Below, one piece after another: positions 19,164-19,362 of a DNA stretch of 61,539 nucleotides. Position 1 is the first letter of the stretch; every line of letters begins with the position of its first letter. The DNA lies in NCBI GenBank assembly GCA_043754535.1, contig JAYUUN010000009.1:1-61539 (forward strand). The letters are read 5' to 3'. Below the pieces are notes generated by a model. That model saw only the letters and a program-made list of their open reading frames with translations, was not told the DNA's origin and searched no databases. The stretch is from Chloroflexota bacterium. GTDB taxonomy: Bacteria; Chloroflexota; Chloroflexia; QHBQ01. Made by a program: the position numbers and the translations under genes.

Positions 19164-19255
19164 TAGGACATAGGGTGTTTCGCACCCTCATCTTGCCCAG
19201 GCACTAGCCCCTACGCCTTCCTCTGCGCCGGGGTAGCAGTAAACAGCCCCTTACG

Positions 19256-19328
19256 CCGTGACTTCGCCCCCAGCGAACACCCGGTCAGCCCAGGATACCG
19301 TGACTTCGCCAGCAGCGAACAGCCGGTC
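19256..19328 (+). repeat. Two 31-nt direct repeats, each a bulged hairpin, in the ahcY leader
   Basis: 19256-19286 CCGTGACTTCGCCCCCAGCGAACACCCGGTC and 19298-19328 CCGTGACTTCGCCAGCAGCGAACAGCCGGTC (28/31 identical). Confidence 0.9.
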
Positions 19329-19362
19329 TAACGGTAAAACCCATTTTGCTAAGGAGCTAAAA

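Follow-up and report, generated by a model that had tools for sequence, protein, structure and literature searches.

Why does the mRNA of ahcY, the gene for S-adenosyl-L-homocysteine (SAH) hydrolase, carry two almost identical bulged hairpins ahead of its start codon in a Chloroflexota bacterium? The question is posed by contig JAYUUN010000009.1 of assembly GCA_043754535.1, of which we analysed positions 1 to 61,539 (61,539 nucleotides (nt); hereafter the window), and in which an earlier note, made from the letters alone, had proposed a new cis-regulatory RNA controlling ahcY. SAH is the product inhibitor of nearly all methyltransferases. Our analysis supports the proposal. The hairpins are the repeated units of a new, lineage-restricted structured RNA specific to ahcY, previously undescribed and belonging to no Rfam 15 family. 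We consider this module an orphan cis-regulatory leader RNA and a riboswitch candidate, which probably serves as a regulatory sensor of the methyl cycle. The earlier note had also named three ways in which its proposal might fail, namely translation from a GTG at 19258, dispersal of the motif as a genomic repeat and absence from relatives; each was examined, and the results given below contradict all three.

The repeats and their hairpins are laid out as follows.

19244..19327, + strand: two 42-nt direct repeats (19244-19285 and 19286-19327), comprising the units and the C-rich linkers (CAGCCC...) 5' of them; 81% identity
19255..19285, + strand: unit 1, GCCG / UGAC / UUCGC-CCCCA-GCGAA / CACC / CGGU; 35.8 bits with covariance model R1 (described below)
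19297..19327, + strand: unit 2, ACCG / UGAC / UUCGC-CAGCA-GCGAA / CAGC / CGGU; 30.4 bits with R1

Each 42-nt repeat finishes in a 31-nt hairpin made up of a 4-base-pair stem, a 4x4 internal loop in which UGAC faces CANC, a second stem and a variable apical loop. The claim of two bulged hairpins 42 nt apart was confirmed, as was every other point of the earlier description that could be checked, and each folds alone as stated, unit 1 at -10.2 kcal/mol (z -2.16, 5 of 200 shuffles as good) and unit 2 at -9.3 kcal/mol (z -1.01, 35 of 200); the stability of the leader as a whole is not unusual (z -0.18, 75 of 200 shuffles as good). The units differ at four positions: two within the apical loop, the N of CANC, and the first base, through which one unit closes with G.U and its partner with A-U. 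This matches what the earlier note had said of differences at unpaired positions and of the closing pair. Two occurrences of the core word GTGACTTCGC-N5-GCGAACA were counted in the window, where 0.01 would be expected, and 0 of 100 shuffles gave two. The UG and CA inside the loop, for which the earlier note had proposed pairing, are invariant in all 36 units that we collected and hence offer no covariation to read.

Infernal searches against Rfam, the check recommended at the outset, returned no Rfam 15 family. Neither the SAH-riboswitch core nor the S-adenosylmethionine (SAM)-I pattern, both said to be missing, was recovered: cmscan of the whole window at the gathering score gave 0 matches, and over 19050-19450, with E up to 10, only noise appeared (mir-1913, 16 bits against a gathering score of 105, on the opposite strand). 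The same search of related loci (14 + 8 = 22) gave nothing on the motif; it did recover SAM-I elsewhere in two of these loci, so the search works. Full-text literature searches, confined to main texts, found no description of the motif.

Distribution, covariation and selection

Forty genomes of one Chloroflexia order were sampled, one per species and many of them incomplete, and about 500 nt upstream of ahcY were read in 30 of them. The module stood 5' of ahcY in 20 of the 40 genomes, as 36 units with covarying stems, 1-4 per leader. All five genomes of family f1 carry it (G000, that of the window, 2 units; G001, 2; G002, 4; G003, 3; G004, 4), as do eight of the nine genomes of family f3 (one unit each in G006, G008 and G016, two each in G020 and G022, three each in G010 and G012, and at least one in G014, where the contig starts); the ninth, G018 (73% complete), gave no ahcY match. 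Within genus g3 it was found in 7 of 26 genomes, one unit each, and three further g3 genomes have no usable region upstream of ahcY. Leaders with a single unit account for 11 of the 20 module-bearing genomes, and units that share a leader are spaced 37-59 nt, start to start. Unpublished genomes lie behind the three units of G012, the module-free ahcY loci of G007, G015 and G034, and some of the negative pattern counts reported below.

The form of the unit varies with the lineage. Genus g2 has 3-4 copies of GCCG-UGAC-GCU...AGC-CAUC-CGGC, and family f3 has 1-3 copies of GCCA-UGAC-GCC...GGC-CACC-UGGC. Part of genus g3 has a longer, single form, ACG-UGAC-GCG...CGC-CA(U/A)C-CGU, which adds an outer stem and an inner hairpin, GUGUUG-AGGGAG-CAACAC (-25.9 kcal/mol, z -2.5). 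In G016 and G022 (loci L286 and L124), a shared stretch about 90-120 nt 5' of the ahcY start (..GCCGGUUCC..GAACCCUCGC..) resembles a decayed unit with the usual linker, without UGAC and CANC, a likeness which hints that units are gained and lost.

When the DNA of the leader was used as a query against 60 other genomes, one was found to carry it (G001, 94% over 297 nt) and the remaining 59 gave short matches only, with E 3e-4 or weaker. A locus from genome_contigs (L125) whose AhcY is 99% identical has the same two units, and in contigs of four DNA runs from four studies the leader is unchanged, differences being confined to 19078, 19542 and 19554.

For more distant loci we used covariance model R1, which was built from 26 units, the three from G012 among them, chosen by a filter requiring UGAC, CA.C and pairing. 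R1 scores all units at 29.5-44 bits, including the five absent from its training set (two from G022 and one each from G006, G016 and G013; 30-37.3 bits). Its best score elsewhere in the 30 related ahcY loci and L124 was 17.6 bits. Applied to 18 additional upstream regions, two of them from g3 and the other 16 from seven further families of the class, it reached at best 10.0 bits; its best scores were 17.3 bits on 79 ahcY loci of other lineages in genome_contigs, and 13.7 bits on 80 metagenome ahcY loci with AhcY identities of 58-69%, taken among the matches listed. None of 176 ahcY loci from other lineages showed the module.

Nor does the motif behave as a dispersed repeat. The two exact copies of the core described above are the only ones in the 3.87-Mb assembly (89% complete), and a structural scan of the same genome for any stem-UGAC-stem...stem-CANC-stem gave 58 matches, three of them from this leader, against 66 in a reversed-sequence control; by both the exact-word and the structural scan, no motif was found in this genome outside the ahcY leader. 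The structural-scan match at 1406-1438 was rejected as coding, since it falls within an open reading frame (ORF) at 199-1554. Genome-wide screens with IUPAC and regular-expression patterns, which demand exact UGAC/CANC so that degenerate copies may escape them, covered the 40 genomes of the order and 401 of the class; among the matches listed, those with tandem units or an inner hairpin all lie beside ahcY. The other listed matches were judged by eye to be chance, and the list holds all but 14 of the class-scan and 14 of the order-scan matches. A first, phylum-wide pattern was dropped as too loose, its matches being about equal to those of the control.

No unit of the 36 departs from UGAC on one side of the loop and CA-C on the other (36/36 invariant), the N being U in 19, C in 12, G in 3 and A in 2, and the apical loops differ in both sequence and length. 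The 32 distinct rows of the alignment pair in 96.4% of cells, and six of the seven pairs have changed on both sides: in the closing stem the pair beside the loop is either G-C (19 rows) or A-U (13 rows), and the third inner pair is U-A in 12, C-G in 11 and G-C in 6. The covariation score was reached by 0 of 500 shuffles, partners slid by 1-3 columns pair in 16-45% of cells, and the outcome is unchanged without the unpublished genome G012 and with the non-training unit of G013. Four rows have G.U in the closing pair and one has U.G in the inner stem, pairs that are compatible only with the ahcY-sense strand.

A comparison of G000 with G001, which is independent of both the training filter and model-fitted alignments, points the same way. 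Four-fold codon sites are identical at 205 of 238 (86%) and 150 of 169 (89%) positions, so that 11-14% differ, and the spacer before the promoter is identical at 60 of 88 positions (28 differ); the leader is identical at 190 of 199 (9 differ), and the repeat region 19244-19327 at 84 of 84. Selection keeps the loop sequence and the pairing, not the sequences of the stems, and it keeps each copy separately, in a conserved structure linked exclusively to ahcY. With its invariant UGAC/CANC and covarying stems, the alignment of 36 units supports an Rfam-type family whatever binds to it.

The ahcY locus and its neighbours

The features surrounding the two units are these.

18002..19045, + strand: pfkB, a PfkB-family kinase gene (Pfam PfkB, E 4.7e-39)
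19134..19163, + strand: promoter-like site of sigma-70 type, TTGACA-18-TACAAT with TG; 11 of 12 positions match
19172..19188, + strand: 5'-proximal hairpin AGGGUG-UUUCG-CACCCU, from sequence reading and in the minimum free energy (MFE) fold
19207..19234, + strand: second leader hairpin GCCCC...GGGGU, weakly supported, in the MFE fold
19351..19356, + strand: Shine-Dalgarno (SD) sequence AAGGAG of ahcY, 6 nt 5' of the ATG (19363); kept in G001
19363..20733, + strand: ahcY, S-adenosyl-L-homocysteine hydrolase, 456 amino acids (aa) (Pfam AdoHcyase, E 4.1e-62; AdoHcyase_NAD, E 4.9e-52)

The promoter and the ribosome-binding site proposed for ahcY are present as described, with a leader of about 190 nt between the promoter-like site and the ahcY start. 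One promoter-like site was found against 0.1 expected from shuffles, 27 of its 30 bases are the same in the sister genome G001, and comparable sites also precede the leaders of G003 and G004. The opening hairpin that had been reported (AGGGTG/CACCCT) reads at 19172-19188 and is unchanged in G001; none was seen in leaders of the next genus. In the second leader hairpin one C-G pair has become U-G in G001 and two predicted unpaired bases are altered, and no conservation of it was found outside the genus.

AhcY itself is 99% identical to that of G001 and 75-76% identical to that of the next genus, with the same N-terminus. Against AhcY of other phyla the order's enzyme gives a single continuous alignment; against that of most other families of its own class the alignment falls into two pieces, residues ~16-151 and 173-456 (with a break at ~150-175). 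This alignment pattern suggests an insertion-bearing enzyme type unlike that of its class relatives.

A PfkB ORF lies 5' of ahcY in 24 of 30 related loci. The top NCBIfam match of the pfkB product is 'nucleoside kinase', at 93.7 bits and under the cut-off of 450; it is probably a nucleoside or adenosine kinase, the adenosine-kinase role being suggested by synteny only. Between lineages the gene upstream of ahcY differs, and therefore the module goes with ahcY. In the genus of the window pfkB is upstream, and the promoter-like site falls between it and the leader. Genus g2 has a gene for an F420H2-dependent quinone reductase and an IS200-like ORF upstream, with a promoter-like site ~65 nt before the first unit. 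The order in genus g3 is pfkB, a receiver-domain gene, the unit and ahcY, and in family f3 the units occupy the pfkB-ahcY spacer, the first beginning at the G of the pfkB stop codon UAG. Clustering of the genes around ahcY gave no partner common to all motif-bearing lineages. In G003, a borderline IS200-like transposase ORF (L037 636-1133, + strand; 22.9 bits against a cut-off of 23) stands just 5' of the ahcY promoter-like site, and the pfkB-ahcY synteny is broken in the genus of that genome.

Two f3 loci have a SAM-I riboswitch (RF00162) 5' of pfkB, away from the units: G010 (72 bits; L052 4040-4210, - strand) and G008 (57.5 bits; L049 3950-4077, - strand). The one in G010 has a terminator-like hairpin with a U-run after it, and between pfkB and ahcY no promoter-like site was found; SAM-I was found in none of six other f3 loci. 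One f3 transcript, in G010 and in G008, would thus bear a SAM sensor together with the new units. The f3 ahcY leaders are also rich in short tandem words (GGGGTCAG, GAAATTA, GGTCAGTGA, CAACTAA) between the unit and the start codon, at L062 40-330, in L286 and L124 (leaders of G014, G016 and G022) and at L049 2860-2895, and these account for much of the variation in leader length.

The ORF at 20983-22380 (+ strand, 465 aa), which separates ahcY from a selB-like gene (22417-24300), matches nothing in Pfam or NCBIfam at E <= 0.001, the sole hint being a 14-bit match to a bacterial PH domain; the overlapping ORFs at 17102-17572 and 17548-17940 (+ strand, 156 and 130 aa), 5' of pfkB, have no Pfam or NCBIfam match.

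What the units may bind

A sequence-specific internal loop within a helix, which three families have kept in every copy and which accompanies a single methyl-cycle gene, bears the hallmark of a binding site. We infer that something binds, with the loop UGAC/CANC as its putative pocket. Our preferred reading, to which we give a probability of roughly 0.45, takes every unit for a tiny aptamer of the riboswitch type, whose ligand would be SAH or the adenosine moiety of SAH; that the ligand is a small molecule, its identity and the direction of control are all things that we infer. Such a unit would be self-contained, with its 4-base-pair stem, the invariant loop, a second stem of at least 3 base pairs and an unconstrained apical loop. 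With ligand bound, the hairpins would become more stable and ahcY expression would be favoured (an ON switch, like the known SAH riboswitch), and the presence of one to four copies would sharpen or sum the response. The module does have the kind of feature expected of a riboswitch: in the leader of a gene related to the putative ligand, its stems covary and its unpaired bases are conserved. ahcY is described as a classic target of SAH-sensing RNA (PMC1950547), doublets, triplets and quadruplets of one aptamer class are reported to occur (PMC9481103), and small tandem hairpins have been proven to be riboswitches in the cases of guanidine-II (PMC9481103) and NAD+-I (PMC7297122).

Several observations weigh against an aptamer. 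No conserved expression platform was found in the leaders. Scans of four leaders predicted no intrinsic terminator, nor was one predicted between the units and ahcY in G010, whose two terminator-like sites both stand 5' of the units. The interval that separates the last unit from the ahcY start measures ~35 nt (G000, G008) to ~250 nt (G016), G008 has an unstructured CAA-rich linker between unit and SD, and the modelled accessibility of the SD is unresponsive to unit formation in five of nine leaders. Among natural aptamers almost none is as simple as a 27-31-nt hairpin with a 4x4 loop, and those who described the pan motif took small size and tandem copies as pointing to a protein site (PMC2864571). 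The module is also dispensable, because copy number shifts among close relatives (2, 3, 4) and 16 of 26 g3 genomes have ahcY without it (one with only 85 nt upstream available). Finally, the training filter and the model-fitted alignments both lean towards structure, and the relatives are not independent.

As to how the units might act on translation, forcing them to form in the folding model never lowered the accessibility of the SD and AUG and raised it by at least 0.1 in four of the nine leaders, a weak hint in line with an ON switch. In the window a weak hairpin can enclose SD and AUG (19341-19365; -4.5 kcal/mol, z -0.85, not significant), and the energies computed for it, with z -0.85 and +0.14, do not improve on shuffles. 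In G001 (L036 2859-2896, - strand), a T-to-C change and an inserted G would keep this hairpin paired and could be compensatory, two sequences only being compared. Pairings of the loop with the SD and of UGAC with GUCA were seen in single species (G008, G000, G003) and are not conserved.

The data do not decide between an aptamer and a protein site, and an operator read by a protein is a close rival. According to this explanation, which we hold to be a serious if tentative possibility, the units serve as operators, hairpins to which an RNA-binding protein attaches in trans. It could be AhcY itself, acting in autoregulation, or a dedicated regulator encoded elsewhere, and by occupying the one to four sites it would govern how the ahcY mRNA is translated, reached by Rho or degraded. 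A small and simple hairpin with an invariant internal loop and conserved flanking pairs would suit such a role, as would a copy number of 1-4 at a loose spacing of 37-59 nt, the lack of an evident expression platform and the variable distance to the SD. Autoregulation also predicts an exclusive link to one gene. It was the 'simple structure and dimeric arrangement' of the pan motif that led its describers to a protein-binding motif (PMC2864571), and in human cells multi-copy hairpins read by a protein control the methyl-cycle gene MAT2A (PMC10578476). Conversely, the tandem hairpins of guanidine-II were first suspected to be protein sites and proved to be riboswitches (PMC9481103).

A further difficulty is that no candidate protein was found. 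Besides pfkB and the receiver-domain gene of g3, the surroundings of ahcY have no ORF in common, and each of these two is missing from some motif lineages. AhcY is a tetrameric, NAD-binding enzyme, and we know of no case in bacteria in which it binds RNA. The RlmF/METTL16 family (PF05971) is found in 0 of the 40 genomes of the order, the control search being positive in 4 of 14 known genomes, and a direct METTL16-type reader is therefore unsupported. Should a protein nonetheless bind, ahcY would be a rare example from bacteria of a metabolic gene whose control runs through mRNA hairpins in several copies.

It is unlikely that the hairpins bind nothing specific and serve as stabilisers, RNase sites or Rho barriers that set the level of ahcY relative to the upstream gene. 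Such a role would agree with the f3 arrangement, in which the units fill the intercistronic space from the pfkB stop codon onwards, with the C-rich, G-poor linkers, and with the absence of a conserved terminator or SD sequestration. However, the invariance of seven loop bases in 36/36 units across three families, while the stems change, exceeds what a stability element needs. The f1 and g3 units are not beside a stop codon, and in four f1 leaders (G000, G001, G003, G004) they lie downstream of a promoter-like site of their own. Moreover, among the matches listed, the module occurs nowhere else in the scanned genomes, though every operon has intercistronic spaces.

The two remaining explanations are close to excluded. 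A DNA-level element, whether a transcription-factor operator or a small mobile or dispersed palindromic repeat, might be suspected from the position of direct repeats with short inverted repeats downstream of a promoter-like site. It is very improbable given that only two exact copies occur in the 3.87 Mb, that the structural scan yielded no more than its control, and that the tandem or hairpin-forming matches listed for other genomes all lie beside ahcY; G.U pairs and compensatory changes point to sense-strand RNA, and a sequence-reading DNA-binding protein would not tolerate stems that differ between copies in one leader. Least probable of all is that the 42-nt period reflects a duplicated peptide, in an AhcY extended N-terminally from GTG 19258 or in a leader peptide: that GTG is in frame with ahcY and its frame is open in this genome (496 aa), but the upstream frame is not conserved, because one extra base between SD and ATG in G001 puts it out of register (open frame of 457 aa), no SD precedes the GTG, the matching GUG frame in G003 stops after five codons, AhcY of relatives begins at the same MT(S/A)V..., with an SD, and changes between units preserve pairing, not codons.

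Comparison with known systems

The riboswitch-type aptamer that we favour resembles several known elements in part. REP-like (repetitive extragenic palindromic) or mobile hairpin repeats, which occur in many scattered copies, differ from it at once, there being two exact copies here. The MAT2A 3' untranslated region of human cells has six copies of one hairpin in the mRNA of a methyl-cycle enzyme, where with METTL16 they form a sensor of SAM supply (PMC10578476). [quoted passage not shown] That system is eukaryotic, lies 3' of the gene and is read by a methyltransferase through a motif in the apical loop, so that it offers an analogy only. Another such element is the orphan pan motif (RF01749), described as small hairpins with conserved unpaired bases, mostly in tandem, before one metabolic operon and also in Chloroflexi (PMC2864571); it has two conserved bulged A residues and stands before panB/panC (PMC2864571), and gave no Rfam match here.

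Guanidine-II (mini-ykkC) is among the smallest natural sensors and consists of similar hairpins in tandem (PMC9481103). Its two hairpins are reported to dock through conserved 4-nt apical loops, a single hairpin being non-functional (PMC9481103), whereas in the ahcY module the apical loops are variable, the internal loop is conserved and 11 of 20 genomes have a single copy. The NAD+-I class (nadA motif) shares with it two tandem bulged stem-loops, here two units 42 nt apart and one to four in relatives, and domain 1 of NAD+-I binds the ADP, and hence adenosine-containing, part of the ligand (PMC7297122, PMC6859854). The nadA domains are described as three coaxial helices with a ACANCCCC bulge and an internal loop, upstream of nadA (PMC7297122). 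The ahcY units have instead one symmetric 4x4 loop, UGAC/CANC, precede ahcY rather than nadA, occur in one to four copies rather than a fixed two, and gave no Rfam match. SAM-I (RF00162) has no match in the window. If the module does sense SAH, the f3 transcripts of G010 and G008 that join SAM-I to the units would read both SAM and SAH, that is, the methylation potential.

The SAH riboswitch (RF01057) is a cis element in ahcY leaders (PMC1950547), and its logic, to sense SAH and turn on its removal, would be expected here as well. It is reported from the 5' untranslated regions of ahcY, metH or metF (PMC1950547), and all 36 units lie upstream of ahcY. In structure the two differ, since the SAH riboswitch model has 78 positions and the unit is a plain, repeated hairpin of 27-31 nt; in a 2022 survey the SAH class is one of those listed as having no tandem arrangements (PMC9481103). 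RF01057 gave no match in the window (at the gathering score, or with E up to 10 over 19050-19450) or in the 22 related loci; a search across the order also gave none, and none in control genomes, and is uninformative. The SAH riboswitch is a pseudoknotted fold of about 80 nt, and to our knowledge it is so far the one RNA class that senses SAH selectively. It may be, and we offer this more tentatively than the aptamer itself, that the module is a second natural sensor of SAH or its adenosine moiety, unrelated in structure, the smallest of its kind at ~30 nt and stackable in one to four copies. If so, a structurally unrelated SAH-sensing element would be added at the same gene, in a phylum whose control of the methyl cycle is little studied, and an element of ~30 nt could serve as a minimal sensor of SAH or adenosine.

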